Part shown: in pieces, positions 6,622-39,890 of the stretch | Numbering within the stretch: the first letter of the stretch is position 1 | Layout: each line of letters opens with the position of its first letter | Assembly (NCBI GenBank): GCA_964477455.1 | Contig: CAYZHG010000100.1 | Location: 1 to 44,484 of the forward strand | Direction: 5' to 3' | DNA from: an uncultured Gammaproteobacteria bacterium | Lineage (GTDB): Bacteria > Patescibacteriota > Patescibacteriia > Magasanikbacterales > GWA2-37-8 | DNA: 44,484 nucleotides | The notes under the pieces: generated by a model | Seen by the model: the letters and a program-made list of their open reading frames with translations, nothing else | Told to the model about the DNA's origin: nothing | Databases searched by the model: none | Program-made: the position numbers and the translations under genes

Positions 6622-6626
6622 AACTT

Positions 6627-7664: not shown

Positions 7665-7673
7665 ATATTATAA

Positions 7674-11502: not shown

Positions 11503-11508
11503 ATATAA

Positions 11509-12468: not shown

Positions 12469-12475
12469 ATATTTA

Positions 12476-13255: not shown

Positions 13256-13260
13256 TTGGA

Positions 13261-14184: not shown

Positions 14185-14206
14185 ACTAAATAATTAATTG
14201 TAAATG

Positions 14207-15163
14207 TTAATAATGAACAAGCGTACTATACTTATTTTCAAAAAAAACTTTCTTATCAAAATAATAACCCCAATCTATGTTGTCATTAAAAACGATAAAA
14301 GGAATGTTTCCATAGTACGAGGCAAAAGCCCCAAATGTACTATCCGATCCAATAATCACATCAGTCGAGGCCAAAGTAAATAGATCGTCTACTACACCAC
14401 CGATACTAAATACAGTATTCAATCCAGAAAAAAAGCTACCGTCAATTTGGCCGTCGGAACAAAGTATAAAAACGGTTTCATTGCTATTGTATTTTAATTC
14501 TATAATCAACTTATCTAATTGTTTTTTTATTTTTTCTTGAGAAAAATATAAGCTACCACCCATCCAAGTTTTGTAATCACCCTGACGAATATGCACACCT
14601 ACTATATGTTTATATTTATTTCTTAGTGTCGATACAAAAGATTTAACCCTACGCTCAATATTCGACTTTGGACGAAAGTAATCGACTGCTTGTTTATGAT
14701 ACTTATTTAGTCCAACTGGATTTCTAAACATCCAACCATCTAAAAATAATTTTATTTGGTCATCGGAAGACTCAAACTCATCCATCTCGCGATCAGTATT
14801 TTTTGTCGGCAACAAATAATGAATAATTGGATTAATACTGTCTGGCGCAAATACCACAATATTTGTATTATTCTCAACTTTTTTTACATAAGAACAATAA
14901 AATTTATATACATAACGATAGAATTTTCCACGTAATTTAATAGGTATAAAAAATTTAAGAAAATTGTATAAGTTAAAAAATATAAAATTTACAAACAAAC
15001 TTTTTGACTTAATATTAAAAAACGGTGCATATTCAAAAAAAGATTGATTATCTATGACATACCCTTTTTCTAAACAATAGGCATATACACTAACAAACAG
15101 CCAAAGTTGATTTGCCAATCTACCGCCATTGTGATTTAAAATGATAACCATTTTTGTTTGCAT
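14207..15163 (-). CDS. GT11-like alpha-1,2-fucosyltransferase candidate
   Basis: N-terminal GGRLANQLWLF (cf. GGLGNQ[ML]FQY), VGVHIRQGDY (cf. the HxRRGDY motif) and IGSDSTFGAFASYY (cf. SNSTFSWWAAYL). GDP-fucose genes are present in the same operon. Confidence 0.55.
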   Translation of the reverse strand: MQTKMVIILNHNGGRLANQLWLFVSVYAYCLEKGYVIDNQSFFEYAPFFNIKSKSLFVNFIFFNLYNFLKFFIPIKLRGKFYRYVYKFYCSYVKKVENNTNIVVFAPDSINPIIHYLLPTKNTDREMDEFESSDDQIKLFLDGWMFRNPVGLNKYHKQAVDYFRPKSNIERRVKSFVSTLRNKYKHIVGVHIRQGDYKTWMGGSLYFSQEKIKKQLDKLIIELKYNSNETVFILCSDGQIDGSFFSGLNTVFSIGGVVDDLFTLASTDVIIGSDSTFGAFASYYGNIPFIVFNDNIDWGYYFDKKVFFENKYSTLVHY

Positions 15164-25091: not shown

Positions 25092-26741
25092 CTACTCACA
25101 AATAAATATTACCACCAAATCATTTTCACCTAATACCGAACAACCGAACTTTCCGCTACGCATTTGAGACAACATTCTAATAGCGTCTTGGTAGCCTTTC
25201 TGATCTACCATTTTACCAATTTGTTCTTTTGTCAAATATATAGTACTTTTTTTCAAAATTATAAATTTATTTTTTACAAACGGTCTATAAACAGACAGAT
25301 CGTTATCATATTCATTTAGCACAGATTTTCTATAAACTTCTGAATCCATCATTAACTCTGAAAATGGACCATTAATAATGTGAATCTGATTATAGTCTAT
25401 ACTTAATTTATCAAATTGAAATCCTGTAAAAGCAGTAATCAAGAAATTATCTTTTTTAATGTCTATCCTACCTTTTAATGAATTAATAATAAAATCGCTA
25501 ATAACAGAATTAGTTTCAAAATTTATTTTTTCATATTTCTTATTTAAAGAAACTAGCAAATTATTATAATTCAGTGAAATAAACAATAATAAAAATATAG
25601 ACGCTATAATGACCTGATATTTATAATAAAGTTTATTAAACACTGGTATTAAAAGCAAAAAGCCAGAGACGATAACTGGCAAATAATACCAACCCCACGC
25701 TTTATTTACGAAAAATAACAAATAAACTAAGTTTATAGCAAAATTGATAGCAATTATTGAAAATATATCTTTTCGTTTAAAGTAAAAAAAAGAAAAATAT
25801 AGACTTACTATAACGATAGGAAAGAAGATAACTGGGGATACAAAATCACGAGCCAATACTGTAAATATTTTTTCAGCCAACGAAATTGTTCCAGACACAC
25901 CGTGGTTAGTTACGTTTGATATCAAATTGTCATTTAATGATTTAAAGAATATTCGATAACCAACCGGGTGTAATAAATATGGATTGGAAAAAATAAAAAT
26001 AATTAAAATTGACAATGCGGACTTTATAAAAACCTTAAACGCTTTAGTCAAATCTACAATTTTATAATTGATAAAAAAATCATTAAAACAATATAGTATA
26101 ATTAATGGCAAGAAAGTCAGAGCTTGAAATTTAAACGATAAAGCAAAACCAAAGCAGATTATCGCAAGCCAATAATAATTTGCATATAAAAATTTATCTT
26201 TTGCAAGATAATAAGTCGTAATTATTAACATTGCAGTCATCATCCAATCAGGATGAAACCATGTAGCAAAGGACCAAAAACCTGGCATAAAAACCAGAGT
26301 TAATGGCACCAGAAAAGAAATTAATTTACTAAGATATAATTTACAAAACTTATATGAATACAATAATGTAGTTAAAGCAAAAACGCTAGTGACCATTTTG
26401 GGTATAAAAACTGACAAAGCAACATTTTTAAAATAGAAAAACGGCGCAGCAAAAATAAAATTTATAAAAAAATATAGAAAACCGTAAGAATAAAATCCAG
26501 TTCTAAACAATAAAGATGGTTTTAATAATCTAAAACCATTGTATATGTTTAGCAAACTACCATGAAAAAAATACTCGTCAACAGAGTGAAGTTGTAAAAA
26601 TCCAATTTCTAAAAAATGAAAATTTAAAAAACTTAATAATAAAAAAAGTGGAACGATAAAAACTAGAGGCATCTTCCAATCACTTTTTAAATCTATCCAA
26701 AATAATTTTATCAAATCTTTAATAAAAGCTTTAAACTTCAT
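25092..26741 (-). CDS. GT-C-like polytopic membrane glycosyltransferase, paralog B
   Basis: More than 10 TM segments and an acidic first-loop motif HSVDEYFFHG. Conserved blocks are shared with 29306..31033: FHPDWMMTA, NVTNHG, INLVYLLF.VNKAW..YYLPV, ISDFIIN, FIILKK. Confidence 0.7.
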   Translation of the reverse strand: MKFKAFIKDLIKLFWIDLKSDWKMPLVFIVPLFLLLSFLNFHFLEIGFLQLHSVDEYFFHGSLLNIYNGFRLLKPSLLFRTGFYSYGFLYFFINFIFAAPFFYFKNVALSVFIPKMVTSVFALTTLLYSYKFCKLYLSKLISFLVPLTLVFMPGFWSFATWFHPDWMMTAMLIITTYYLAKDKFLYANYYWLAIICFGFALSFKFQALTFLPLIILYCFNDFFINYKIVDLTKAFKVFIKSALSILIIFIFSNPYLLHPVGYRIFFKSLNDNLISNVTNHGVSGTISLAEKIFTVLARDFVSPVIFFPIVIVSLYFSFFYFKRKDIFSIIAINFAINLVYLLFFVNKAWGWYYLPVIVSGFLLLIPVFNKLYYKYQVIIASIFLLLFISLNYNNLLVSLNKKYEKINFETNSVISDFIINSLKGRIDIKKDNFLITAFTGFQFDKLSIDYNQIHIINGPFSELMMDSEVYRKSVLNEYDNDLSVYRPFVKNKFIILKKSTIYLTKEQIGKMVDQKGYQDAIRMLSQMRSGKFGCSVLGENDLVVIFICE

Positions 26742-27436
26742 AATTGTTTTTTTAATTTAAAACTATAATCTAAAGTCCTTTTGATAAATTTGAATTTTGA
26801 AAATAAATTCTTATTCCAATGCGACTCACCGTGTAATCTTTTTTCGAACATTACAGGTAAACGAATAATTTTTAATTTATTTTTTCTAGCTAAATATAAC
26901 GCGTATAGATCGAGAGAGAAATCCCAAGGTGGATTCGACCAATTGTCATAAAAACTTCTATGAAAAATATTTGGCTGCGCATTGATATCAAATAGCTTTT
27001 CTCTTAAATATAAACTTTCAAATAAAGACATTCCAAAAGTAAAAATTCTATCAAACAACGGACGTCCAAACCGCCGTCCTTTTATGTAAATATCTTTTGG
27101 GCTATTAGCCTGTTCGATAATTTCTAAAGCACTTATTACATCTTGAGGCGGGGTTTGCATATCGCCGTGAGTCCAACCTATATATTCTCCACCAGACATC
27201 TTCAAACCGCTCAAAATACCATATCCATATCCAAGATTTTTTTCTACTTTTACAACTTTTAAAAAACTATATTTTGAAATTAATTTATCTAAAACAAATT
27301 CCGTGTTATCATAAGAACCATTATTCACTAGAATAATTTCAATGTCTGACCTAACTATTACCTCTTTAAATTTTTCAAGAATAAGGAGGATATTTTTTTC
27401 CTCATTGTAACAAGGAACAATTATTGAAAATTTCAT
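26738..27436 (-). CDS. Short soluble GT2, polyprenyl-phosphate sugar synthase-like (DPM1/ArnC/GtrB-type)
   Basis: MKFSIIVPCYNEEKNI...IILVNNGSYDNT...HGDMQTPPQD; 232 aa with no TM. It lies between polytopic GT-C-like genes and has a 4-nt overlap with the next gene. Confidence 0.7.
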   Translation of the reverse strand: MKFSIIVPCYNEEKNILLILEKFKEVIVRSDIEIILVNNGSYDNTEFVLDKLISKYSFLKVVKVEKNLGYGYGILSGLKMSGGEYIGWTHGDMQTPPQDVISALEIIEQANSPKDIYIKGRRFGRPLFDRIFTFGMSLFESLYLREKLFDINAQPNIFHRSFYDNWSNPPWDFSLDLYALYLARKNKLKIIRLPVMFEKRLHGESHWNKNLFSKFKFIKRTLDYSFKLKKQL

Positions 27437-27439
27437 ATA

Positions 27440-29296
27440 TTAATTACTTGGCTTAAAATTTGTACCAACCATATCGTTAATGTTTATCATTGCTTTAAAT
27501 CGTTCATTTACCGTTAGGGTCCGATAAGGTGTGCCGCTTGGAAGAGAAAAAATTCTTGTGTCAACTTCTGCTGGTAAGTAGAAATTTCCAACAACACCAA
27601 CTAAACCATACTGCAGAAATGGGCCAACCAAAGATAAAGTGACTATAATGCAAAATGGAAACAACAGCTTCCAAGAAAACATACTTCTCATCATTAATAT
27701 ATAAGCGACGGAAAAACCCAAAAATAGCATAGCCATAAAATTACCGATACCCAAAAAACGAGCCATCTCTATTTCTTTGCCATACAATACTACAAAAGAA
27801 GAACAAACAAATCCAAAAATGAATAAAACAATACCGACCATCCAAATCATCTTTACAAAATCCTTATATTGATTTTGAAAAATCGGTTTATTTATAACAA
27901 AACCAAATAAAGTAAACCCAAGAATTGGAAAAAAAATTAACAAAAGGTTAACCACCCATCGTAAGGGATGATTTTTTTTAAACAAAGAAAGAATGGATTT
28001 ATCATCTGTTTGATTAACTACCGACATAGAAGATGAGACTACATCACTAGGCACTAAATCGCTTTCATTGATAGATTGAAAATATTTTTTCTGTATCATA
28101 CTAAATATTCTCTTTGAGTGTGCTAAGGTATCAAAATTCATTAAATACATTTTTGAACGAAACTCTATCAATGGATATTGTGCACTGTCCGATAAAGACA
28201 TTACACCAGGAATAAAAACTTTATCAGCAAATTTACTCGGCAACAACATGCTTCCAGACCACAATCCAACACAAGTACCAAAAAATAAAAAGACTAAAAT
28301 TATACTAACCATTTTTATTCTAACTAAAATCTGAGCTTTTACAAATAAAAACAGCACACCTAGAAAGAGGATCGCTAAAACTACATTGTGAGCTGCGATA
28401 ATATTCCAACTAAAACCAATAACTGCAATAATTGAATAAGCGTACGATTTGTTAATATTATTATTTTGACGTTGAGTTAACAAATAACAAATGATTATAA
28501 AAATAAGAAAGGTAACAAACCCCATCATTGTATCTACGCTCCTAATCAAAAGATTGGTACTACCAGTATCGGTAATCTCAATATAAATAGGATACAGCGC
28601 TGAATTTCCCAACATAGTAACAATAGTACCAAAAACGGAATATGATTGTTTTTTTACGAATAAGTTTATTACTCCATATACTATCAACGTTAAAAAAAAC
28701 ATACACACACTCAACCAAACGACCAAGGTTAACTGCGGAATATTCAAACCAAAGAACATTGGAATTGAAGACAAAAGTGACTGACCATAATTTTGATTTA
28801 GTATAGGAATATAGTTTTCTTTTGCTATGAAAACTGATATGTTCCCCGCACGCAAACTGTGAACTACACCGCCAAATCCATATGCGGGCAAAGTATTGTC
28901 CATGTTTGATAAAAATAAATCAGGCATAGGAACAAGGGCGTGAATGATACCAAAAACGATAAAAATTATACAAAACAAAAAAGACAATAAATATTTTGTT
29001 AAATTAACGTGTATATACGAATATATAAATTTAAAATTATACAATACCGTTACTACCAGCAATATCACCACCACTAATAATGGAACAAAAGCTGTTTTAC
29101 TTAAAAATGAAAACAAACGCCAAGCAGTTAAAAATAATATTACGCCCAAAAAAAACGAAAAACCAACTTCCGTGGAATATGATCGTAATTTTTTGTCATT
29201 CAAAAAACCTAACGACCTTAAAACCAATAGACCAGCTAGAACAAAAAGCGTCGAAAAAATAATTACTACTAATATATTTAAAAATGCTGAGACCAT
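27440..29296 (-). CDS. Polytopic integral membrane protein (~14 TM), unassigned; candidate GT-C or polymerase-like
   Basis: Continuous hydrophobic segments across 618 aa with no recognisable soluble domain. The reading frame is tightly packed within the operon. Confidence 0.55.
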   Translation of the reverse strand: MVSAFLNILVVIIFSTLFVLAGLLVLRSLGFLNDKKLRSYSTEVGFSFFLGVILFLTAWRLFSFLSKTAFVPLLVVVILLVVTVLYNFKFIYSYIHVNLTKYLLSFLFCIIFIVFGIIHALVPMPDLFLSNMDNTLPAYGFGGVVHSLRAGNISVFIAKENYIPILNQNYGQSLLSSIPMFFGLNIPQLTLVVWLSVCMFFLTLIVYGVINLFVKKQSYSVFGTIVTMLGNSALYPIYIEITDTGSTNLLIRSVDTMMGFVTFLIFIIICYLLTQRQNNNINKSYAYSIIAVIGFSWNIIAAHNVVLAILFLGVLFLFVKAQILVRIKMVSIILVFLFFGTCVGLWSGSMLLPSKFADKVFIPGVMSLSDSAQYPLIEFRSKMYLMNFDTLAHSKRIFSMIQKKYFQSINESDLVPSDVVSSSMSVVNQTDDKSILSLFKKNHPLRWVVNLLLIFFPILGFTLFGFVINKPIFQNQYKDFVKMIWMVGIVLFIFGFVCSSFVVLYGKEIEMARFLGIGNFMAMLFLGFSVAYILMMRSMFSWKLLFPFCIIVTLSLVGPFLQYGLVGVVGNFYLPAEVDTRIFSLPSGTPYRTLTVNERFKAMININDMVGTNFKPSN

Positions 29297-29305
29297 ACGT
29301 AATTA

Positions 29306-31033
29306 TTATAATTTTTTCTGAAAAATATACACGTATTTGTCTTCGCCAATCAAGCGATAGCCAATATTTCCTTTTATAATTTTATCAAGCAATTGATTCG
29401 CCTCAAGATATGGTTTTTTATCTTCAATATTTAGCGAATCTAAAATACCAATGTTAATGAACCTTTCATTCTTTTTTAAAATTATAAAATCTTTAACTAC
29501 AAAACTCATTCCGATTTTATCAACCTCTGCTGCAGATGCAGCAGGATTAGCAAGTAGATAGCTGGACATTAAAGCCGATTTAGAAATTTGCGCTTCCGAC
29601 AAAGGTCCCCACAATAAATTTAATTGACTGTATTTCAAATTTAATTTTTCATAATCAAAGCCAGTATAAACTGAGATTAATATATTTGATTGTGCAGAAA
29701 CTTTTTCTGAAATAGTATTAATAATAAAATCACTAATTTCACGCTGTTGATCTTGAGTATAATCTCCTGCTGAACCATAATCAATAAACTGAGCTTGATA
29801 ATCATGTCTTAAATCAAAGTAGTAAGGAATTTTATTAATATTAAACAACACTTGTATAAACGTTAACAAAAGTAACAGCGACAGTTGATAACTATACTTA
29901 AGTCGTTTTAATGGTAATGAGATCAAAATAACTCCAACACAGACAACCGGTAAATAGTAATGATTCCACGCCTTATTCACTCCAAATAACAAATAAACTA
30001 AATTTATAATAAAAGCAATCGCCAAGACAAAAAAAATGAATTCCTGTCTGGTTCTCAAATAATTATAAAGACAAAATAATGATGTAACTACCAACAACAA
30101 CAAAAAAATATAATTCATGTAAAACTCAGAAATGGCAAAATGTACTTTGTCTTTTAAATTTAAAATTTGCCCTCCGCCATGATTGGTTACGTTAGATTCA
30201 AGATTGCTAACAAGAGAGCCAACAAATAATCTCGCTCCTTTCGGATGAAAAAGATAAGGGTTAGTTAAGAAAAAAACTGCACAGATTATCAACAATGCAA
30301 TCAATAACTTTTTTAAACTTTTGGATATACCAGCGAGTTGCAACTCTGATATTTGTGAATAAAAAACATAGACAAGTAAAATTGGTGAAAAAGTTAAGAT
30401 TTGATATTTTGTAGTAACCGCCAAAGCGTAAAAAAATATTGACAGCCAATAATTATCTGAAAAATTATATTTATCCTTAAATAAAAAATATATTGCCATT
30501 AATAAAAAGGCAGTCATCATCCAGTCTGGATGGAACCAGGTTGCATTCACCCAAAAAGCCGGCATGAATAATAAAAATATCACAACTACCATTGCTGGCA
30601 ATCGTTTTAAGTACAGACAGACTATTTTATAAAGATATACTAAACTTAAAACTGCAAAAAAAGAAGTAATCATGCGTGGAATAAAAATTGCCACAGCACT
30701 ATGACCAGTTATAAAAAACGGTATAACCACTATTAAATTAATGAAAAAAAAGATAAAACCATACTGATAAAAACCTGTCCCAAATAATGTTTTAACATTG
30801 TAACTTTCGAAAGCACTAAACATGTGCAGTAATATCCCATGAAATACATATTCATCTAATGAATGGGTAATTACAAATCCGACATTGGCATAAATTGAAT
30901 CAAGAAAAAGTAATACAAAAAATACTGGGATAAATATAAAAAAAAGTATAACCATCCAGTCTTGCTTAAGATCAGAACAAAAATATCTGGTAATTTTTTT
31001 AAATATTTTACTAATCATAATTAAACTATCCAC
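29306..31033 (-). CDS. GT-C-like polytopic membrane glycosyltransferase, paralog A
   Basis: HSLDEYVFHG, FHPDWMMTAF, NVTNHGG and a C-terminal soluble ~170 aa. It is full-length collinear with 25092..26741. The start may instead be Met6. Confidence 0.7.
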   Translation of the reverse strand: MDSLIMISKIFKKITRYFCSDLKQDWMVILFFIFIPVFFVLLFLDSIYANVGFVITHSLDEYVFHGILLHMFSAFESYNVKTLFGTGFYQYGFIFFFINLIVVIPFFITGHSAVAIFIPRMITSFFAVLSLVYLYKIVCLYLKRLPAMVVVIFLLFMPAFWVNATWFHPDWMMTAFLLMAIYFLFKDKYNFSDNYWLSIFFYALAVTTKYQILTFSPILLVYVFYSQISELQLAGISKSLKKLLIALLIICAVFFLTNPYLFHPKGARLFVGSLVSNLESNVTNHGGGQILNLKDKVHFAISEFYMNYIFLLLLVVTSLFCLYNYLRTRQEFIFFVLAIAFIINLVYLLFGVNKAWNHYYLPVVCVGVILISLPLKRLKYSYQLSLLLLLTFIQVLFNINKIPYYFDLRHDYQAQFIDYGSAGDYTQDQQREISDFIINTISEKVSAQSNILISVYTGFDYEKLNLKYSQLNLLWGPLSEAQISKSALMSSYLLANPAASAAEVDKIGMSFVVKDFIILKKNERFINIGILDSLNIEDKKPYLEANQLLDKIIKGNIGYRLIGEDKYVYIFQKKL

Positions 31034-31041
31034 AATACTAA

Positions 31042-31755
31042 TTATTTCTTTTTGAATAAATAATTAGGGTTTTTGATTACCAATTCGTATTTATCATTCA
31101 GCATAATTTCTTTCATCAATTTACTAGATCCCAGACTCTGCCTATCCGACGAATCGTCGAACAACACAAAACCACCTTTTTCTAAATATTTATCAGTATT
31201 TTCAAAGTCCCTTTTCGAAAAATCATAACTATGATTACCGTCAATGTAGCAAAAACTTATTGGACCGCCCAACATTACTTCTTTGCCAAAAATATCATTT
31301 AATTTCTTGTTTTGTGACCATAGTTCAAAAAATTCATCCGAAAAATACTCAATCGTATGTGGTAAATTATTTTTACTAAAAAGTGAAACATTTTTTTTGA
31401 AAGCATCTTTCACGAATTCTCTGTATTCCTTATGAGTAACGAAAGACTTCCCCAATTTTGCCTCAGCAGAATCTGAACCTTCGAAGATCCATTTATCCGC
31501 AGTAAATAATACATTATTTTTATTGTTTAGAAATAAATAATAATTAATCAAATTTGTTGACAAACCACAAAAAGACCCAATTTCTACAATCGGACTATTG
31601 CTAGGCAAATTTTTTATTGCATAATCAAAACAATAAAGATTACCGCGATTTAGCATACCAGCATTTGCAAAACACAGCCATTCTACATATTCGTCAGAAA
31701 TATCTATTTTAGGATTTATAATTTTTCTTAAAAAAACCAAAATTTTATTTATCAT
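31042..31755 (-). CDS. Class I SAM-dependent methyltransferase (Methyltransf_24/CmcI-like)
   Basis: IVEIGSFCGLST and FCYIDGNHSYDFSKRDFENTDKYLEKGGFVLFDDS. Confidence 0.72.
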   Translation of the reverse strand: MINKILVFLRKIINPKIDISDEYVEWLCFANAGMLNRGNLYCFDYAIKNLPSNSPIVEIGSFCGLSTNLINYYLFLNNKNNVLFTADKWIFEGSDSAEAKLGKSFVTHKEYREFVKDAFKKNVSLFSKNNLPHTIEYFSDEFFELWSQNKKLNDIFGKEVMLGGPISFCYIDGNHSYDFSKRDFENTDKYLEKGGFVLFDDSSDRQSLGSSKLMKEIMLNDKYELVIKNPNYLFKKK

Positions 31756-31765
31756 ATTAGATTAA

Positions 31766-33637
31766 TTAGTGATATAAAGTAAAATAATCAAACTGTTTGA
31801 TCGTGCTCGAGTTAATATTTATTTTATTTTGTTTAGATATTAAATTATACTTATCTATTTGTTTTCTAAACAAATCCATTTCTGAATTTTTTATAACCAC
31901 ATATTCATTAGGTTCAATCGTTTCTAATCGATCACCGAACGATCGGACGTCCTTCCACCAATAAAATTTTTTTTCATAATTATTTTCCAAATCTTCGGCT
32001 AGTAAAAAATTCTTAAAATAATTATTACGGACAAAAGCACCCGAGTACATGGCGATTCCGCCAAAATCCCCTCCTCCACACAAGTTATTACTACCAAACG
32101 GCAATAATATCACCTCTAGCGGATAAGGTCTCTTTAAATAAGCAGTGATGTCTTGATAATTTGCACTTATAGCATCTTGCTTCTTGATATTTAAAGATGT
32201 TCTGTACCTAAATATATCATAATCCGGACGTATACTCAAAAGTAATGATAAAATAACAGTGGCCAAAATTATTTTTTTTATTTTATCATCTTTTAACTGT
32301 GATATAAAAAATACTGTTAATATAACGGACAGAAACATGTTAATAATTGCAAATTTATGAATATTATCCCAAGTGTCAACATTTGTAATCCTAAAAATAA
32401 GTGGAAAAACAAAAGTGACCAACAAAACCATAGAAAGAAGTTGGTGTAAAAATTTTTTAGAATTAACAACATATACCAGGGCTATCAGTATACCTAAAAA
32501 TGATATGGTACCGGACAAACGTAAATAATACGCCACCACCCCCAACGACAAGCCGATTTGAGATATTGAGTTAAACCGGAAAGATAAATGTGTCGAATCA
32601 TATTGTGGCCCTCTTAAGAACGCTGACGGTATATGATGTGGCAACAGATACACGAAGCCTAATAATAAAAAACAGACAAATAATCTCACTATCTCTTCTT
32701 TATTAAAGACTATTTTAAATTTATCATCTCTAAAACGTATTAATAATTTTCTAAATAACAAAATAACTAGAGCCAAAAATAACACACTGTACAGCGTGGC
32801 GTTGGCTGTACTAGAGGATAACACAAAGAGTGTTAGTCCTAGTAATTGTTTGAAATTAAATGTGTCGCTGTCTTGCAGATACCACATAAGCACAGCCAAC
32901 AACAACAGAGCTACTGGCCATGAATTTGAAACCACGTACTCAAAGGCACTCAAATAATTATACAGACCAAATTCAGTAAACCAAGGAACACTACATGAGC
33001 TAATTAGGACAAAAAGTGGCAAAATTAAATATGAATAGCGATTTTTTATCTTCAAGAAAAAAAATTGTAAAAGAAGCACAATTAAAAAGAAAATAATGGT
33101 TGACGAAATAACTATAGAATAAGCTGGTGAAATTTTTAACCAATAAGAAAATACACCGGATAAATAAATAAAACCCTGATGATAATTGGCTGGAAATTCT
33201 GGAAAGCTGATAAACGAGACTGGAAATCGTCCATTTGAAACTTGGGTAACCAACGCGGTCAAATACGTCGGACAACTCCCATCCCAATATGCCCAATTTA
33301 CTCTAATAGCAAATAGAAAAGTTGATGCTAAAACTAAAAATATCGATAAAATTAAAATATTTTTACTAACATAGATAATAAAACTATTTTTTTTCAATAT
33401 ATAATAGCTAGACACAACCGACAATACTAAAGAGGTAAAAAATAAAAATCTAAACGGTAAATGAAAAATAGATAATAACGAGGCAAAAAACTGTAAAAAA
33501 ATTATAATCGTTGATACAAAAATAAAGAAAAAAAAGTTTATTTTCTGTTTAGGCCTATTATTAATATCGATAATTTCTTCAGAAAATACCTTTGGGGAAA
33601 AAATTACTTTTATATATTGTGTGACTGTCTTAAACAT
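31766..33637 (-). CDS. Polytopic integral membrane protein (~14 TM) with ~130-aa C-terminal soluble domain; candidate GT-C
   Basis: Hydrophobic periodicity over about 480 aa, then a polar C-terminus. I recognise no family signature. Confidence 0.55.
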   Translation of the reverse strand: MFKTVTQYIKVIFSPKVFSEEIIDINNRPKQKINFFFFIFVSTIIIFLQFFASLLSIFHLPFRFLFFTSLVLSVVSSYYILKKNSFIIYVSKNILILSIFLVLASTFLFAIRVNWAYWDGSCPTYLTALVTQVSNGRFPVSFISFPEFPANYHQGFIYLSGVFSYWLKISPAYSIVISSTIIFFLIVLLLQFFFLKIKNRYSYLILPLFVLISSCSVPWFTEFGLYNYLSAFEYVVSNSWPVALLLLAVLMWYLQDSDTFNFKQLLGLTLFVLSSSTANATLYSVLFLALVILLFRKLLIRFRDDKFKIVFNKEEIVRLFVCFLLLGFVYLLPHHIPSAFLRGPQYDSTHLSFRFNSISQIGLSLGVVAYYLRLSGTISFLGILIALVYVVNSKKFLHQLLSMVLLVTFVFPLIFRITNVDTWDNIHKFAIINMFLSVILTVFFISQLKDDKIKKIILATVILSLLLSIRPDYDIFRYRTSLNIKKQDAISANYQDITAYLKRPYPLEVILLPFGSNNLCGGGDFGGIAMYSGAFVRNNYFKNFLLAEDLENNYEKKFYWWKDVRSFGDRLETIEPNEYVVIKNSEMDLFRKQIDKYNLISKQNKININSSTIKQFDYFTLYH

Positions 33638-33656: not shown

Positions 33657-34271
33657 TTATAGCCATTTAGAAACTAAATCTAACGAAGTCATGACAGAAT
33701 CAGGATAAAAATTTAAATTTTTCATTAATTTTCTGTATTCTGAAATATCCTCTGGTCTACCCCATCGAGATGGACACACTAAACACGTTCTAAAAGGCTT
33801 CAATTTGCCCACCACAACAGCGTCTAACGGTAAAACAGTGTTAGTATCAACCCAAACCCAATCAATGGCTGGTTTACCATCAACAACTTGAGCTTCTGCC
33901 ACTTCGATTGGCTCAGCTTCACTATATCTTACAGCAATTTTCCTAAAACCATCTTTTCGAGTTGCTTTATACAAATAAGGAAATTCGACATCTAACAAAA
34001 AATAATTAGAAATATTATATTTTTTAGCTAGACCTATCACCTGCTGTTCGCATCCAGCTTCTTTAATATTGAATATTACAAACGAATGATTAAAACTTTT
34101 TAAATACTCTTCTAGTTCATCGTATTTTTTATTTTCATCTATAGGATCATGACTCAAAAATATTTTACTACCATACCCGCGTATATCAATTTCAACCCCA
34201 TATTCAAACGGAATATTAGCTAAATCTTTTATAGTATTAATACGGTGAATAATAATTTGCATAATTATCAA
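33657..34271 (-). CDS. PI-PLC/GDPD-like phosphodiesterase-fold protein (short)
   Basis: IIHRINT...YGVEIDIRGYGSKIFLSHDP resembles the GDPD HR(G)...E.D...HD catalytic pattern. About 200 aa. The start may instead be Met4 (34262). Confidence 0.45.
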   Translation of the reverse strand: MIIMQIIIHRINTIKDLANIPFEYGVEIDIRGYGSKIFLSHDPIDENKKYDELEEYLKSFNHSFVIFNIKEAGCEQQVIGLAKKYNISNYFLLDVEFPYLYKATRKDGFRKIAVRYSEAEPIEVAEAQVVDGKPAIDWVWVDTNTVLPLDAVVVGKLKPFRTCLVCPSRWGRPEDISEYRKLMKNLNFYPDSVMTSLDLVSKWL

Positions 34272-35105
34272 CTATTTTAAATTTTTAAAATATTTTTTCC
34301 ACAGCAACTGATCCGACACACCATCTTTACATTCACCCAAACCATAGCGATAATAATATTCTTTATCTTCATATACATAAAGATCGCTCGGCTTTCCCCA
34401 ACCAACATACAAATCAATATCAAATATGACACTACGCTTACCCAATTTATTATAAAATATCGGCAATGAATCAACATAAAATTCATTGTTAATTCTAAAA
34501 TTTTCTAACTCCATTAATTTATATGCGGCTATAAAATCCGAAGCTTTCTTGAAATAAAAAGTAGCCACAACTGCATGGTCGTTAAACGGATTGTCAGAAA
34601 CAGGGATCTTTACCGACATATCAGAAATCGTACTGTTATCTTCGGCTAATTTAATCCATCCCCAAGATGTTGGTTTTTGAATTATTAAATCATTTTTAGT
34701 AAAAGTCCAAACTACCGCATCAATACTCACATCATTCTTAAGTTGATTAAACAAATTGTTATTATAGACAAAACTATTATCACATGCGGCTATAAAAACC
34801 TCTTCTCCTGGATCAATAAAAGGCATGGCCAACATACAGGTAGTGGCTTGACCATCGGTCGTTTTGTCGACCGGAATAATTATTGCATTTGGTGAAACAG
34901 ATTTAATCAATAAGTCCAACTGATATTTTTTAACATGTTCCGCACGTACAATAAAAATTGATTTTTCAGCTGACGGCAAAGATTCAATCACACGAACAAT
35001 CATCGGTTTACCAGATACTGGTACTAGAGCCTTTGGTAATACGTACCCAGCTTCCGCAAAACGCGAACCTTCACCGGCCATTGGTATAATATTAATCACA
35101 ATCAA
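34272..35105 (-). CDS. Sugar-/small-molecule-phosphate nucleotidyltransferase (LicC/NTP_transferase-like), copy 2
   Basis: IIPMAGEGSRFAEAGYVLPKALVPVSGKPMI (a variant of GxGxR + PK). The C-terminal GWGKPSDL resembles the usual 'idtpeD' end. There is zero intergenic distance to both neighbours. Confidence 0.72.
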   Translation of the reverse strand: MIVINIIPMAGEGSRFAEAGYVLPKALVPVSGKPMIVRVIESLPSAEKSIFIVRAEHVKKYQLDLLIKSVSPNAIIIPVDKTTDGQATTCMLAMPFIDPGEEVFIAACDNSFVYNNNLFNQLKNDVSIDAVVWTFTKNDLIIQKPTSWGWIKLAEDNSTISDMSVKIPVSDNPFNDHAVVATFYFKKASDFIAAYKLMELENFRINNEFYVDSLPIFYNKLGKRSVIFDIDLYVGWGKPSDLYVYEDKEYYYRYGLGECKDGVSDQLLWKKYFKNLK

Positions 35106-36002
35106 TTATTTTAAATTTTTAAAAAACCCACTCCAATACTTAAAAGATTTTCCTAAATTATCTTTTGAGTGACTTTTAATATAGTCATTACTACTTGTAA
35201 TGAGCTCAGTGTAAATTTGGTGAAATTCTACATCAGAACCATGGCGAATGAACAAATTTGACCAAACATTATATTCTTCTAAATCCTCCGGTGTCCCCCA
35301 TTGACAAAAATGGTTGATTTTATCGTAAATACCAACTTTTAAACCATCTTTTACTAATAAATTATAAACCAAACTAGCGTAATATTCTCCGTTAAGATCT
35401 ATCTTTTTATCAATTAGTTCTTGAAAAAACTTTTTGACATATTTACCGTACTTAAAATAGTGGGTGCCTGGTGAATGCATTGACTGGGTTTTGTCTAATG
35501 AATAAGAAAATTTTTCTCGAATTTCTTCTAAATTGCCGTTTAAATCTACTTTTACGCTAGCGTAAAAATTCTTCTCATGTGTCAAGTGCGGGTGAAAGCC
35601 AGTATACACTGGCAAACATGCATCGTAATTTATCTCTAAAACTGTCTTCTTAAAATCAGCATAATTCCAGTTCATGAAAAAATCACAATAATTTACGATT
35701 GCCGGTTCATCATCGTCGATAAGATGAAAAGCTTTGGCGGTGGCAAAAACCGGACCAAGCTTTTCTCCGGGCATAGAAATAATTCTCGCCTTTGGTTTTA
35801 GAGATAATAATATTTCTCTCATGTTAGTTTCTTGCAAGTGCTCTTCACGACAAATAAAAATAAAATTTTCCTCTCCCGGAAAAAGATTTACAACATGTTC
35901 TATAATAGGTTTACCATCAACTTTTATCAGTGGTTTTAGTTCGGCATACCCAACCCGTTTAAATCGTGCACCTTCACCAGACATTGGAATGATAATTTGC
36001 AT
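35106..36002 (-). CDS. Sugar-/small-molecule-phosphate nucleotidyltransferase (LicC/NTP_transferase-like), copy 1
   Basis: IIPMSGEGARFKRVGYAELKPLIKVDGKPII and QWGTPEDL. It shares the C-terminal tail FKNLK* with copy 2. Confidence 0.72.
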   Translation of the reverse strand: MQIIIPMSGEGARFKRVGYAELKPLIKVDGKPIIEHVVNLFPGEENFIFICREEHLQETNMREILLSLKPKARIISMPGEKLGPVFATAKAFHLIDDDEPAIVNYCDFFMNWNYADFKKTVLEINYDACLPVYTGFHPHLTHEKNFYASVKVDLNGNLEEIREKFSYSLDKTQSMHSPGTHYFKYGKYVKKFFQELIDKKIDLNGEYYASLVYNLLVKDGLKVGIYDKINHFCQWGTPEDLEEYNVWSNLFIRHGSDVEFHQIYTELITSSNDYIKSHSKDNLGKSFKYWSGFFKNLK

Positions 36003-36003
36003 A

Positions 36004-37068
36004 TTATTTATTCAATAATTTTTGTCTAAATTTCTCACTCTCCATTTTGTTGATAAAATTTATATCAACAGAAGAAATCTTTTTTAATTGTAAATTTAAC
36101 CTCTTAATATTTTCTTTAATATAGCAGTAGGCAACTATCGTTTCCTCAATTGTCAATGATTCTTTTTCGCTAGTATTGTAAACTAATTTTTTTATTTTTT
36201 TATCTATAAAAAATTTTTTTCCAAATTGGATAAAATTATCTTTAATTAAAACATCGCTATTAAGATAAACAACCTGGTCCGGAAATATAACTGGCTGAAA
36301 TAAATTTTTATTCAACAAGATACTGTTAAGATATTTTTTTAAAAATATAGTATTACTCTCAAAGCAATCTCCTTGTTTTTGGATTGATACCTTTGGGTAA
36401 CTGGATTTAATTTTAAAATATTTTTTGATCAACTTGTCAACTTGTAAATATAAATCTAAACAACGATCAAAATTATCTGAATTTATTATAATTCCATGAT
36501 TTTGCAAAAAAATTATTTCTGGCCAACTATTACCTCTTGTAACATGCACGTCGATACTTTTTTGAATCTCTCTTGCCAGACTTAATCCTGGCGCTCTGTA
36601 ATTAACGATGATATATTCGACCTTAGTTTTATTAAAGATTTTATGTAATAATTTTTCTGAATCTACAGAACAATTTATTAAATTAGCGTAAACTGAATGA
36701 CTATGAACTGTGTATTTTTTTAAAAAAGCATGAAAACCAGTTTCGATAGATGCTTTTAAGCTTTGCTCTGGTAAAAAATTACTAGTAAAATCTAAAATTG
36801 CCTGATTACTCAAATTTTCAATCTGAACATTAATTTTTATTCCAGTAAAGGTTTTGAAATACTCTTTTACCTTTAGATAATTTACCAAAACAATACCATG
36901 TGTTTTGTCTACTTCTTTCAAGGATAGCCCGGATGCCTTGATTAACATGTTTTGTTCATCAAGTTTAATGGAAAAATTTCCACCACCACCCTGCACCCAA
37001 TCAGAGCCAGAACCAATAAGGCGAGCAATTTTTACCGATTGTTCTAGATAAACATTATTGATTTTCAT
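36004..37068 (-). CDS. Class II aldolase/adducin-fold protein (RhaEW N-terminal-domain-like) with C-terminal extension
   Basis: GGGGNFSIKL...MLIKASGLSL, ASIETGFHAFLKKYTVHSHSVYAN (cf. GGGNTS, VKGSG.DL and PSIET.LHAFL...HTH of this family). Confidence 0.65.
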   Translation of the reverse strand: MKINNVYLEQSVKIARLIGSGSDWVQGGGGNFSIKLDEQNMLIKASGLSLKEVDKTHGIVLVNYLKVKEYFKTFTGIKINVQIENLSNQAILDFTSNFLPEQSLKASIETGFHAFLKKYTVHSHSVYANLINCSVDSEKLLHKIFNKTKVEYIIVNYRAPGLSLAREIQKSIDVHVTRGNSWPEIIFLQNHGIIINSDNFDRCLDLYLQVDKLIKKYFKIKSSYPKVSIQKQGDCFESNTIFLKKYLNSILLNKNLFQPVIFPDQVVYLNSDVLIKDNFIQFGKKFFIDKKIKKLVYNTSEKESLTIEETIVAYCYIKENIKRLNLQLKKISSVDINFINKMESEKFRQKLLNK

Positions 37069-39217
37069 AACGGTGTTCCAACTTCATTTTTTGAAATATA
37101 TAATAGCCAATAAAGAGCTGAATTATTCCATTATGACCCGCCGACCAACGCGGATCATCTTTTACAATTTCCCATAACTCAGGGATCATTTTATAAGCAA
37201 TCTTATCAATTTTTAACGCGTTTGTTTCTCCTCTAACTTCTAAAATCTGTTTATCACCCTCATAATAATGAACAATTTTTAAATCCTTATTATCTTCCAA
37301 CTCTATCAAAAGTGGCAATATATTTATATTATTTTCAAAAATTATTTTCAGATACAACTTCATGTCAGCAATCTCTTTAGAAAAATCATCAATTTTTTTA
37401 TCAGTGTTAAATGAAAGTACTATGTCTGCATAAGTATCTTGATGATTTATATATTTATCCGAATCACCAGCTCTTTGTTTGATTTGTTCCAAAATTTTAT
37501 TTGCATCATAACCGCGCTCCTTCATATCACGTTGCACTTTCCAATAAAGTCTTAGATCTTCTGAAGGTTTAATATAAATTTTTAAATCATAAAAATCCCT
37601 CATTTTATTAATAAACAAACTATGCAACCCTTGGAAAATAACAATTTTTTTAGAATGCAACTTAACTGGTAATGTAAATTTACCCGTAGAGTGATCATAA
37701 AAGCTTCGATCAATAGATCGTCCCGCACGCAGATCAATAACTTGATCCATTTCCGAATGTAATTTGTTGGCACGAGGATCTAAATGTGTAAATTTAGACC
37801 AGTTTTTATCCCCTCTTTCCCAACGATGAGCATCATCCCCAGCCACTATTAAAGTATTGTCTTCTCCAAACTTATCAGATATCAAATTGGTAAAAGTACT
37901 TTTTCCACAACCAGAATCACCCGCCACAGCGATTAAATATGGTTGGTAATTAATTTTATTTTTTATTAAATTTTCTATTCCTTTACGATATATCCATAAT
38001 ATATTCAACAATAATGACCCTTGTAGAAGAGTGAAAAATATATTAACTAAATAATCAGGATTTATTCCCATCTTTTTAACCCAACTATATGGCGTAATTA
38101 ATGAAGCAATAGCAGGTGAGGAAAGCTGCCAGACAGAAAAAATATCTGAATTTTTTATAAAAATAAAATAAGCAAAATAAAATATATTTAAAAATATAAA
38201 AATATACTTCGGAGCACCATCTTGTTTAACATAAAAATAAATAAAAAATGGAATAATCCAATAATACCAACCTGGCATTGGTGGAATCAATAGTGTCAAA
38301 ATACCAAAACTAAAACCTAAAAACATCAAGAAAATATCTCGATTTAAAATACGGTAGGTTAAACTTTTTACAAACAAAAGCAAATATGCAAAAGGTACAA
38401 AATAAACTATTAATTGATCGTTTATTTTCCAACTTAAATTTAAGACTTTTAATCCCTCTTTTGTTTTAAAAACTATCTCTACAAAACCTGGTGTCAAAAT
38501 GTATTTAAAATTCAAAATTATAAAAATCAGTAGCGGCACAGACAAATAAGCCAAAATTTTATACCAAGAAAATCTTCGTAGTAATAGATAAACCAAAACA
38601 AACGGCAGGATTATTGCAATGCTTGTCTTAGTGGATATAGATAAGCCCAAGAAAATGAATGCCTTAACAAACTTTTCTTTAAATAAAAAATACAAAAATA
38701 CAAACAGAAGCGCGATCGGTAAAGCGTCCAGCTGTCCGTGAACATAATTAATATAAAAAAGTATTGGGGAACACCAATAATATAACAGAACCTTTTCTTT
38801 CTTGTTCTTTAGCCAACGATATAATACTAATAATACAATAAAATCCGCCAAAATAATCGGAACGCGTGCTAAAAAGAAATGCCAATGTGTAGTTGTATAG
38901 ATGTCGTGATTTAAGAAGGGTGAAAAAATAAAGCGAGGTATCGCTAACAGCCACAACATCAAATCTGGATAAGGAAAGATATTAAAAATTTTCTGCTGAT
39001 AAAAATACTTATATGGATCACTAAAACCGTTGACAACGAAATAATTTACAAATGGAATAAACAATTTTACCAAAAAATCTGAAGCTAAAAGCCATGAGGC
39101 AATAATTTTTATCATCAATACGGACCAAAAAAGTTTACTGTTTAAAAAACCAACTTTAAAAACACCGTTTTTTTCATAAAAAGATGCTTTAATTTTGTTG
39201 ATCAAATCTTGTATCAT
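37055..39217 (-). CDS. Fusion protein: GT-C (GT87/DUF2029-like) polytopic membrane domain + C-terminal phosphoribulokinase/uridine-kinase-family P-loop kinase domain
   Basis: Membrane part: FPYPDLMLWLL, RVPIILADFIVLLVL, YWCSPILFYINYVHGQLDALP. Kinase part: YLIAVAGDSGCGKSTF (P-loop at ~37895-37930), VAGDDAHRW, FYDHSTGKF, IVIFQGLH, YWKVQRDMKERGY and RAGDSDKYINHQDTYADIV. I chose Met32 (39217), which avoids a 71-nt overlap with the HAD gene. Met1 at 39310 is still possible. Confidence 0.72.
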   Translation of the reverse strand: MIQDLINKIKASFYEKNGVFKVGFLNSKLFWSVLMIKIIASWLLASDFLVKLFIPFVNYFVVNGFSDPYKYFYQQKIFNIFPYPDLMLWLLAIPRFIFSPFLNHDIYTTTHWHFFLARVPIILADFIVLLVLYRWLKNKKEKVLLYYWCSPILFYINYVHGQLDALPIALLFVFLYFLFKEKFVKAFIFLGLSISTKTSIAIILPFVLVYLLLRRFSWYKILAYLSVPLLIFIILNFKYILTPGFVEIVFKTKEGLKVLNLSWKINDQLIVYFVPFAYLLLFVKSLTYRILNRDIFLMFLGFSFGILTLLIPPMPGWYYWIIPFFIYFYVKQDGAPKYIFIFLNIFYFAYFIFIKNSDIFSVWQLSSPAIASLITPYSWVKKMGINPDYLVNIFFTLLQGSLLLNILWIYRKGIENLIKNKINYQPYLIAVAGDSGCGKSTFTNLISDKFGEDNTLIVAGDDAHRWERGDKNWSKFTHLDPRANKLHSEMDQVIDLRAGRSIDRSFYDHSTGKFTLPVKLHSKKIVIFQGLHSLFINKMRDFYDLKIYIKPSEDLRLYWKVQRDMKERGYDANKILEQIKQRAGDSDKYINHQDTYADIVLSFNTDKKIDDFSKEIADMKLYLKIIFENNINILPLLIELEDNKDLKIVHYYEGDKQILEVRGETNALKIDKIAYKMIPELWEIVKDDPRWSAGHNGIIQLFIGYYIFQKMKLEHRYENQ

Positions 39218-39239
39218 ATTTAATGTAAACTTTAAGTTA

Positions 39240-39890
39240 CTATGAAACTTGATAAACTTTTTTAATACCAAACGATTTTGCTCCTTGAATATCTTTTTTA
39301 TGGTGATCACCTATCATTATGACTTCGCCCTTACCTAATTTTAATTTATCCAACGCCAATTGAAATATGTTTGGAAAAGGTTTTTCTGCACCCGCTTCTT
39401 CCGAGGTTACAACGTAATCAATGTATTTATCTAATTTTAAAAAACATATTTTTTTAAATTGAATCTTTGTAGTCAAGTCGCTTACTATACAAATTTTAAT
39501 ATTTAATTTACGACATTTTTTTAAAAATACCATCATCCCAGAAACTAATATCATTTTTTTTAAAAAATTTTTCCAATAAATATCCTCAAACCTTTCCGTC
39601 ATTCTAATCTCGGTCCTTCCGTAAATTTTCTCAAAAAAAACTTGAAAATAAAGTAGTCGTGAATGCCCAGAACCTTGATTTGGTAAATATTTTTTTACAG
39701 ATTCTTGGGCTTGTGTATAGGAACTTTTAAATTCGGTCTGATCAAAATTTTTATTTATCCTCCTTAATTCTCGATAACAGCAACCCAAAGCATAATCATG
39801 ACACACCTGATACTTATAAATAGTATTATCTAAATCAAGTAGTACTGCTTTTACCTTATCCAATTCAATATTATCCCAAAAAATTTTCAT
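39240..39890 (-). CDS. HAD-superfamily hydrolase (subfamily IA-like phosphatase)
   Basis: AVLLDLDNTIY (DxDxT), IVSDLT and MIGDHHKKDIQGAKSFG. It overlaps the fcl 3' end by 20 nt. Confidence 0.78.
   Translation of the reverse strand: MKIFWDNIELDKVKAVLLDLDNTIYKYQVCHDYALGCCYRELRRINKNFDQTEFKSSYTQAQESVKKYLPNQGSGHSRLLYFQVFFEKIYGRTEIRMTERFEDIYWKNFLKKMILVSGMMVFLKKCRKLNIKICIVSDLTTKIQFKKICFLKLDKYIDYVVTSEEAGAEKPFPNIFQLALDKLKLGKGEVIMIGDHHKKDIQGAKSFGIKKVYQVS

Follow-up and report, generated by a model that had tools for sequence, protein, structure and literature searches.

A portable gene cassette centred on a membrane domain-phosphoribulokinase fusion, probably serving a lipid-linked pentose-type sugar donor

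Why should a kinase of the phosphoribulokinase (PRK) type be fused to a polytopic membrane domain and be encoded among surface glycan genes? The question is raised by contig CAYZHG010000100.1, whose 44,484 nucleotides (hereafter the window) come from an uncultured bacterium that GTDB places in the Patescibacteriota. An earlier note had described five genes in this window as an unassigned activation module: a glycosyltransferase of the GT-C class fused to a kinase, an aldolase-II-fold protein, two tandem nucleotidyltransferases (NTase-A and NTase-B) and a protein with the glycerophosphodiester phosphodiesterase (GDPD) fold. We think it probable that these five genes, together with a haloacid dehalogenase (HAD) phosphatase gene and a displaced glycosyltransferase family 2 (GT2) gene, form a portable cassette for making and using a lipid-linked sugar donor of the pentose type. 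In our best reading it is a three-component system of the type known from O-antigen glucosylation (GtrA/GtrB/GtrC; Gtr) and from ArnC/ArnT (Arn), equipped with a new, uncharacterised sugar-activation route. Its parts in the window are as follows.

39240 to 39890, minus strand: HAD-IA phosphatase (Pfam HAD_2, 3.7e-21), directly upstream of the fusion gene.
37055 to 39310, minus strand: open reading frame of the GT-C::PRK fusion, 751 aa when read from GTG.
37946 to 39217, minus strand: GT-C-like polytopic membrane domain of the fusion, N-terminal, aa 1-424 of a 720-aa product.
37055 to 37945, minus strand: PRK domain of the fusion, C-terminal and presumably cytoplasmic, aa 425-720 of the 720-aa product.
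36004 to 37068, minus strand: class II aldolase-fold metalloenzyme (PF00596, 4.5e-16, 59.7 bits against a cutoff of 22.2).
35106 to 36002, minus strand: NTase-A (PF12804, 1.2e-4, 22.7 bits, below the cutoff of 27).
34272 to 35105, minus strand: NTase-B, a paralogue of NTase-A (PF12804, 3.2e-9, and PF00483, 1.9e-5, both above cutoff).
33657 to 34262, minus strand: P204, a predicted GDPD-fold TIM barrel of 201 aa (AlphaFold2 model, pLDDT 95.4, and Foldseek).
26738 to 27436, minus strand: Dpm1/GtrB/ArnC-like GT2, 232 aa (PF00535, 1e-21), about 6 kb from the other genes.

The five consecutive minus-strand reading frames between 33657 and 39310 were recovered with the tight spacing ascribed to them. 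The fusion and aldolase-fold genes overlap by 14 nt, a single nucleotide separates the latter from NTase-A, and NTase-A, NTase-B and a 204-aa reading frame (33657-34271) abut directly, provided that NTase-B starts at TTG 35105 (277 aa); another gene call uses the internal ATG at 35081 (M9, 269 aa). The 204-aa frame probably starts at ATG 34262, since the recorded identical protein (P0121) has 201 aa. For the fusion, ATG 39217 is the most likely start rather than GTG 39310, because homologues measure 705-735 aa and the product is 720 aa long in independent gene calls; the 751-aa protein had no match in an exact-sequence lookup. The two halves lie in one open reading frame in all 84 related loci, and the locus with the same 720-aa fusion occurs in at least four separate ENA metagenome assembly records. 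Thus, the fusion is real and not the product of a frameshift or of assembly.

We then looked at which genes accompany the fusion, using the window proteins to search 82 fusion-encoding loci, 80 from species-representative genomes and two metagenomic. Most frequent beside the fusion were the two NTases (73 loci each) and the aldolase-fold enzyme (72); the HAD phosphatase and the GT2 were each found in 62 loci and P204 in 59. The GT2 is up to 65% identical and usually follows NTase-B directly. All eight parts were present in 35 of the 47 long loci (at least 20 kb, about 10 kb on each side of the fusion). Co-conservation is therefore strong. It also shows that the boundary drawn around five genes was too tight: the HAD phosphatase, correctly placed immediately upstream by the earlier note, and the GT2 belong to the unit, and the aldolase-fold enzyme is an optional member.

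The cassette is widespread. Two homologue searches with the fusion protein gave 461 and 1814 matches and one with the GDPD-fold protein gave 1204; carriers include many Patescibacteria, Bacteroidota, an Aenigmatarchaeote, a Melainabacterium and a spirochaete symbiont, the family being prominent in Patescibacteria and DPANN genomes. Among cultured Bacteroidota it is found in Eudoraea adriatica, Zeaxanthinibacter enoshimensis and Geojedonia litorea. A tblastn search with P204 located the same cassette on plasmids of Escherichia coli, Azospirillum brasilense and Hirschia baltica, each time with a GtrA gene. The E. coli example (L083, NZ_CP145712.1, cassette at 6022-14984) is self-contained on an IncR plasmid of about 33 kb, with IS26 alongside. 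The closest relatives of its proteins (80-97% identity) are abundant in environmental metagenomes, those with names being betaproteobacterial (Orrella, Crenobacter), which suggests recent horizontal acquisition. At the DNA level the cassette was found in only 2 of 5426 complete E. coli genomes. An identical copy lies on a plasmid of E. coli ES3 (NZ_JCAPUP010000005.1); the isolates come from human stool (Switzerland) and a bullfrog. Several small metagenome-assembled genomes that carry the cassette (L003, L009, L010, L021, L026, L040) are labelled 'uncultured Gammaproteobacteria', 'Rickettsia typhi', 'Rhizobium sp.' or 'uncultured archaeon'; these labels are probably wrong, the loci looking like those of Patescibacteria or DPANN.

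Natural variants of the cassette bear on function. NTase-A and NTase-B are fused in 12 of 75 loci, including those of E. coli, Azospirillum and Eudoraea (540-556 aa in the E. coli and Azospirillum plasmids), and the PRK end of the fusion protein is joined to the aldolase in five loci. In eight Bacteroidota loci, P204 is replaced in position by a canonical Pfam GDPD (PF03009, 2.3e-27), and seven of these eight have no aldolase gene. Because a canonical GDPD takes the place of P204 in those eight loci, a GDPD-type activity belongs to the core; the aldolase-fold enzyme, absent from seven of them, is an optional accessory, as expected of a sugar-diversifying epimerase and as seen for the auxiliary epimerases of pentofuranose systems (PMC11127046). 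RefSeq gives the proteins generic names ('uridine kinase', 'HAD family hydrolase', 'class II aldolase/adducin family protein', 'NTP transferase domain-containing protein', 'PI-PLC/GDPD family protein'). A literature search on PRK in candidate phyla radiation, GT-C, polyprenyl, O-antigen or xylulose contexts found no publication describing the cassette, in line with the earlier note, which could name no characterised pathway with this gene combination or fusion.

What does the kinase domain phosphorylate? The C-terminal 295 residues of the fusion match PF00485 at 1.7e-40 (139 bits, cutoff 22), so that the domain is a kinase of the PRK/uridine-kinase type, as had been read from its motifs, and it lies closer to the PRKs: in phmmer, E-values are 1e-37 to 1e-40 for solved PRKs (from cyanobacteria, plants and Methanospirillum) and 1e-10 for uridine kinases. 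Identity to the solved PRKs is about 45%, estimated by eye from the printed alignments. The AlphaFold2 model of the fusion (pLDDT 89.9) superposes in Foldseek on full-length PRK chains with TMt of 0.73-0.79. Moreover, D461, H464, R468, K560, R563, D564 and R568 are invariant in 50 family members; from the phmmer alignment, read by eye, we take these to correspond to D42, H45, R49, K165, R168, D169 and R173 of Rhodobacter sphaeroides PRK, which are catalytic or bind ribulose-5-phosphate (Ru5P). By homology, the domain is a genuine PRK-type kinase. Its score against the NCBIfam phosphoribulokinase model NF005655 (212.8 bits) falls below the cutoff of 236, and its sequence places it in a PRK-like subfamily of its own.

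The membrane domain was harder to assign. It has about 9-12 predicted hydrophobic helices, and the profile matches to the GT-C class claimed for it come from its relatives, which match Alg6_Alg8 (1e-6, 3 of 12 members), GT87 (2e-6, 3 of 12), ALG3 and PMT_2. Its family profile matched nothing among PDB sequences. D125, D164, K37 and K197 are invariant in sequence. From the matches of the relatives, the domain is likely a GT-C.

The HAD phosphatase has its best NCBIfam match in NF053830, ribulose-1,5-bisphosphate (RuBP) 5-phosphatase (1.2e-50; 172 bits, below the cutoff of 330), against which the Eudoraea orthologue (L066) scores 186 bits, and its DxD, K and D motifs are kept in at least 93% of 67 homologues. 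The aldolase-II fold assigned to the next enzyme is well founded: it is closest to the N-terminal aldolase domain of bifunctional rhamnulose-1-P aldolase/short-chain dehydrogenase (SDR) proteins and to PDB 3m4r, the metal ligands H122, H124 and H191, the catalytic E109 and also H113 and the phosphate site (N31, S46, G47, S107) are kept in at least 93% of 71 homologues. Its C-terminal extension of about 140 aa (36004-36420) has conserved residues of its own (P263, D264, V267, E345, R348) and no family assignment, and homologues range from 296 to 358 aa in length. By homology it is of a type whose substrates are ketose-1-phosphates, and we propose that this protein is an auxiliary epimerase acting on a pentulose-1-phosphate or bisphosphate.

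A HAD phosphatase and a class II aldolase have been shown experimentally in haloarchaea to convert RuBP to ribulose-1-phosphate (Ru1P) and then to cleave Ru1P (Sato et al. 2022, PMC9700705). The cassette resembles that pathway in having a RuBP-5-phosphatase-like HAD beside a class II aldolase-fold enzyme, after a RuBP-forming step. The haloarchaeal route, a non-carboxylating pentose bisphosphate pathway, is built from the same three types of enzyme (PMC9700705), and PRK, HAD and aldolase might likewise serve as a shunt for catabolism or salvage, from RuBP via Ru1P to dihydroxyacetone phosphate and glycolaldehyde, that lies near glycan genes by chance. Alternatively, the fusion might be an artefact. 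Against this, the PRK is covalently joined to a membrane GT-C domain in 84 of 84 loci, on plasmids the three enzymes are accompanied by NTases, GT2 and GtrA, seven loci do without the aldolase yet retain the NTases and GT2 where they are long enough to show them, and an artefact is hard to reconcile with several separate ENA assembly records. The two systems also differ: the haloarchaeal pathway is catabolic, obtains RuBP from ribose-1,5-bisphosphate and uses a FucA-like aldolase, whereas the cassette lies in a glycan context, would obtain RuBP from PRK, and has an optional aldolase-fold enzyme of a different subgroup (RhaD-ADH N-domain/3m4r-like). We regard the shunt or artefact as very improbable, and the co-occurrence and fusion data largely refute it.

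The two nucleotidyltransferases both appear to be active enzymes. Family profiles searched against the PDB placed 4evw, an uncharacterised Vibrio NDP-sugar pyrophosphorylase, first for NTase-A (1.6e-13, then GlmU, RfbF and HddC) and for NTase-B (1.7e-14, then GlmU, HddC and RmlA). They share a PxxGxGxRF...K loop, an Asp, a Lys and a WGxPxD motif: P6, G9, G11, R13, F14, K23, D107, K164 and W235-G-T-P-x-D240 in NTase-A, and P8, G11, G13, R15, F16, K25, D109, K166 and W236-G-x-P-x-D241 in NTase-B, each set kept in at least 93% of 74 homologues. Since the catalytic motifs are kept in both, neither looks like a degenerate regulatory subunit. The earlier call of two nucleotidyltransferases thus holds for NTase-B by Pfam scores and motifs; for NTase-A, which misses its Pfam cutoff, it holds by motifs and by the profile match to 4evw. 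For both, GlmU, HddC, RmlA and GalU rank above IspD, LicC and inositol-phosphate cytidylyltransferases.

The similarity of both NTases to HddC, although weak, brings to mind ADP- and GDP-heptose synthesis (HldA/HddA, GmhB, HldC/HddC), in which a kinase makes a bisphosphate, a HAD enzyme strips the distal phosphate, leaving the other phosphate for activation by an NTase. Following this logic, the kinase might act on another ketose phosphate (xylulose-5-P, sedoheptulose-7-P or hexulose-6-P) and the cassette might yield a heptose- or hexulose-type sugar. The order of kinase, HAD and NTase fits, and the specificity of the enzymes may have shifted, because the PRK and HAD scores lie just below and well below their equivalog cutoffs, respectively. 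However, the seven catalytic or Ru5P-binding positions of the PRK are all invariant, its identity to true PRKs is about 45% by eye, and no GmhA-like isomerase is conserved with the cassette. Heptose-pathway kinases have the ribokinase or GHMP fold, whereas the cassette kinase is a P-loop enzyme of the PRK/Udk type, and the cassette further differs in having a ketose rather than an aldose substrate, additional aldolase-fold and GDPD-fold enzymes and a second NTase. All together, a different ketose substrate seems improbable to us.

P204 and its family profile gave no Pfam, NCBIfam or useful PDB sequence match, so that structure prediction was required. The best Foldseek matches of its model are the GDPDs 1zcc, 4oec and 7e0v (TM 0.68-0.76, E 2.5e-5); H6, R7, E24, D26 and H38, which follow an HR...ExD...H pattern, and D91 and E93 are invariant or nearly so, and PGAP labels the plasmid orthologues as members of the PI-PLC/GDPD family. 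An hhalign comparison of the P204 family with the canonical GDPD of one Bacteroidota locus (L054) gave a probability of 0.3%, that is, no detectable sequence homology. The GDPD fold claimed for this protein is therefore borne out by the model and the motif, not by PF03009, and a link between P204 and GDPDs is supported by predicted fold, motif and gene position. P204 had no homologue in the phage collection searched, and there is thus no sign of carriage by seroconverting phages. A distant P204 homologue (26% identity) adjoins a HAD phosphatase gene on a Scandinavium goeteborgense plasmid (L085, NZ_CP054057.1, 9001-10270), in an ABC-transporter-type glycan cluster without a PRK fusion, which may represent a related but different pathway.

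Where would an activated sugar go? The GT2 has its best PDB match in the dolichol-P-mannose synthase of Pyrococcus furiosus, 5mlz (9.5e-13, residues 1-224), followed by GtrB and ArnC, and carries the motif HGDMQTPP, which resembles what we take to be the subfamily motif, DADLQxPP. We propose from these matches that it is a polyprenyl-phosphate sugar synthase. Four loci, those of E. coli, Azospirillum, Hirschia and L001, encode a GtrA-family flippase. GtrA, a Dpm1/GtrB-like GT2 and a GT-C together are the hallmark of systems in which a sugar donor linked to polyprenyl phosphate is used on the outer side of the cytoplasmic membrane.

These partners also bear on the logic first suggested for the module, that of LicA/LicC/LicD or TarI/TarJ/TarL. 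In such a scheme, an NTase would make an NDP-(1)-pentulose, a counterpart of CDP-ribitol, CDP-glycerol or CDP-6-fructose, and the pentulose-phosphate would be joined to the glycan by a phosphodiester, the GDPD-fold enzyme performing the phosphodiester chemistry. CDP-6-fructose and CDP-glucitol provide a precedent (PMC10918830). The phosphate of Ru1P is primary and non-anomeric, the kind activated by CDP-alcohol-type NTases, and a GDPD-type enzyme is a core member. Yet the module has no conserved LicD, TagF or CDP-alcohol phosphotransferase; its conserved partners are instead the Dpm1/GtrB-like GT2, GtrA and GT-C, and the NTases are nearer to sugar-1-P enzymes (GlmU, HddC, RmlA, GalU) than to IspD, TarI or LicC. 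Furthermore, GDPD enzymes are hydrolases or cyclases, and we know of none that acts as a glycan phosphotransferase. We consider a phospho-linked substituent distinctly unlikely. The Lic/Tar analogy is accordingly abandoned; the general idea of an activation module dedicated to a pentulose-type substituent stands, without the phospho-linkage.

The preferred reading, a lipid-linked pentose-type donor, suggests the following pathway. The cytoplasmic PRK domain, whose homology is clear, would phosphorylate D-ribulose-5-phosphate at C1 to give RuBP, and the HAD enzyme, judging from its best family match, would remove the 5-phosphate to give Ru1P, which can close to a furanose because O5 has been freed. 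Where the aldolase-fold enzyme is present, the ketose-1-phosphate might be epimerised, for example to xylulose-1-P, by a retro-aldol/aldol or an enediolate route. The two NTases and the GDPD-type phosphodiesterase would together produce a nucleotide-activated sugar, the least certain step. The Dpm1/GtrB-like GT2 would then move the sugar onto polyprenyl phosphate, a flippase (GtrA in several loci) would carry the lipid-linked sugar across the membrane, and the PRK-fused GT-C domain, perhaps with a variable polytopic neighbour acting like GtrC, would attach it to the surface glycan. A ketopentofuranose (ribulo- or xylulofuranose) is our favoured guess for the sugar; our confidence in any specific sugar is low.

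Xylulose occurs in Yersinia enterocolitica O:5,27, among other organisms. Xylulofuranose is found in E. coli O95 and O97, Campylobacter jejuni RM1221, Devosia submarina and Eubacterium saburreum, and as L-Xulf on the D-rhamnan of Y. enterocolitica O:10 (PMC7685785, PMC11380512, PMC8707391). According to a 2019 review of E. coli O-antigens, genes for an activated xylulose precursor are not in the O-antigen clusters (PMC7685785). The cassette is an attractive candidate for a xylulose route because it would start from Ru5P, has an optional epimerase and often lies beside GDP-6-deoxyhexose genes. When the E. coli fusion protein was used as query, the best 120 matches were all close relatives of betaproteobacterial type, and no xylulose-containing organism appeared among them.

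How two NTases and a phosphodiesterase could activate a ketose-1-phosphate may be rationalized by a phosphate relay. PRK would place a phosphate on C1, beside the anomeric C2, and HAD would free O5 for furanose closure. NTase-A would turn the 1-phosphate into an NDP ester (NDP-1-ketose), from which the GDPD-type enzyme, using the anomeric 2-OH, would expel NMP to form a 1,2-cyclic phosphate and then open it to the 2-phosphate. Finally, NTase-B would make a true NDP-2-ketofuranose donor for the GT2; whether the product has the ribulose or the xylulose configuration would depend on the optional aldolase-fold enzyme. Cyclisation of the PI-PLC type and the hydrolysis of ribose-1,2-cyclic phosphate by PhnP are precedents for such steps. 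In this relay each conserved enzyme would be used once, and the obligatory presence of two active NTases and a phosphodiesterase would be accounted for. Taken as one joint reading, in which the cassette is the missing route to ketopentofuranose residues in bacterial glycans by way of this relay, it is a speculative proposal with a small chance of being right in full.

Several observations weigh against the lipid-linked donor reading or parts of it. The activation chemistry is its weakest link, since the phosphate of a ketose-1-phosphate is not at the anomeric position: an ordinary NTase acting before the GT2 leaves the route unexplained unless extra chemistry is added, and the roles given to the second NTase and the GDPD-type enzyme are conjecture. 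By sequence scores, the HAD, PRK and NTase-A proteins all fall under curated equivalog or Pfam cutoffs. No GT-C family is matched directly by the N-terminal domain of the window fusion itself, and Foldseek with the full-length model returned only PRK and uridine kinase entries, and no GT-C, among the best 50 matches. A single conserved GT-C domain is also hard to square with very different acceptors across phyla. No GtrA was found in the window, and no gene of GtrA size fits into its gene chain. Finally, the plasmid-bearing E. coli S1-CAM-01-A belongs to serogroup O35, not to the xylulose-containing O95 or O97.

Directly downstream of the P204 gene lies that of a large membrane protein:

31766 to 33637, minus strand: M623, a 623-aa polytopic protein with about 12 hydrophobic segments and no family match.

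M623 is a candidate for a variable, acceptor-specific transferase and may belong to the module. A large polytopic protein of 520-690 aa also adjoins the cassette in E. coli, Azospirillum, Hirschia, Eudoraea, L001 and L002. We rejected these neighbours as a conserved module member: nearly all are mutually dissimilar, the only cross-locus match being between window protein M618 and a 616-aa protein of L001 (comparison of the window, E. coli, Azospirillum, Eudoraea, L001 and L002), and M623 had a homologue in only two of the 82 loci. Between the module and the GT2, the window encodes two PMT_2-type GT-C paralogues that are 37% identical (25092-26741 and 29306-31033) and two large polytopic proteins without family match (27440-29296 and 31766-33637); these four make up an unusually dense set of candidate extracytoplasmic transferases. 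A TylF/Methyltransf_24-type methyltransferase gene lies beside the cassette in distant lineages (window 31042-31755, L001 16729-17424, L066 7911-8624), in copies too divergent for BLAST, and the added sugar or its acceptor may be O-methylated. Further glycan genes around the module encode GMD, a GDP-fucose-synthase-like SDR, a Wzm/Wzt-like ABC transporter, an O-antigen-ligase-like protein and other GT-C proteins. The target glycan in the window is thus probably the 6-deoxyhexose-containing, ABC-transporter-exported polymer encoded there.

Farther away, three adjacent minus-strand genes (6627-10264) resemble the polyprenyl-phosphoribose system of Kelly et al. 2024 and mycobacteria, which starts from phosphoribosyl pyrophosphate (PRPP) and uses a UbiA-type transferase:

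8507 to 10264, minus strand: 585-aa membrane protein with a C-terminal HAD/PGP-phosphatase-like domain.
7674 to 8519, minus strand: UbiA-family prenyltransferase.
6627 to 7664, minus strand: SDR epimerase.

Two different systems for lipid-linked pentoses may thus operate side by side in this organism, encoded in one glycan locus. This set is relevant to another possible product of the cassette, an aldopentofuranose (such as D-Araf, Ribf or Xylf), made by the same cassette logic: Ru1P would be isomerised to an aldose-1-phosphate (a reverse MtnA or R15P-isomerase reaction), converted to an NDP-pentofuranose and passed to polyprenyl phosphate. The NTases are indeed nearest to enzymes of anomeric sugar-1-phosphates, and there are established GT-C systems in which pentofuranoses are added from polyprenyl-P donors (PMC11127046). 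But the cassette has no eIF2B/MtnA-like isomerase, ribose-1-P would be far more simply available, the GDPD and the second NTase would have no role, and a second route seems redundant because the window already has a candidate UbiA-type polyprenyl-phosphoribose system. An aldopentofuranose product is, in our view, unlikely.

Returning to the proposed lipid-linked donor, among its closest known counterparts are the Gtr and Arn systems, which share with the cassette a small Dpm1/GtrB/ArnC-like GT2 and have a polytopic GT-C transferase, as the fusion's membrane domain is likely to be. The likeness extends to the GtrA-family flippase of the four loci named above, to carriage on mobile elements and to the variable large membrane neighbours, which recall the serotype-specific GtrC. 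In contrast, Gtr systems draw on housekeeping UDP-Glc, whereas the cassette brings its own sugar-activation pathway of five or six enzymes, and a single GT-C-like domain is conserved across phyla and joined to a soluble kinase, an arrangement not known from Gtr or Arn systems. The pentofuranose systems (PPPRS, a MATE flippase and the GT-C GT136; Kelly et al. 2024, PMC11127046) and mycobacterial DPR/DPA synthesis resemble the proposed pathway in placing a pentose-phosphate-derived sugar on polyprenyl phosphate. Further likenesses are a HAD-type phosphatase step, optional auxiliary epimerases that diversify the sugar and a final extracytoplasmic GT-C transfer. Both start from PRPP with a UbiA-type transferase and without a nucleotide sugar; the cassette has instead PRK, NTases, a GDPD-type enzyme and a GT2. 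A PRK, a GDPD-type enzyme, paired NTases and a kinase-GT-C fusion are all missing from the Gtr, Arn and pentofuranose systems.

The family described here is large and phylogenetically broad, it is without an assigned function, and its public names are generic or, as with 'uridine kinase', misleading. In Patescibacteria and DPANN, surface glycans probably mediate attachment to the host. The cassette is also present in cultivable Flavobacteriaceae, Hirschia and Azospirillum, and its compact version on the 33-kb E. coli plasmid makes the model directly testable. If the model is true, PRK, an enzyme normally tied to CO2 fixation, would have been repurposed as the first step of a glycan-sugar pathway and physically tethered to the transferase that uses the end product of that pathway, and the cassette would be a possible source of the xylulofuranose supply for the polysaccharides of E. 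coli O95 and O97, Y. enterocolitica O:5,27 and O:10, C. jejuni RM1221 and Devosia.

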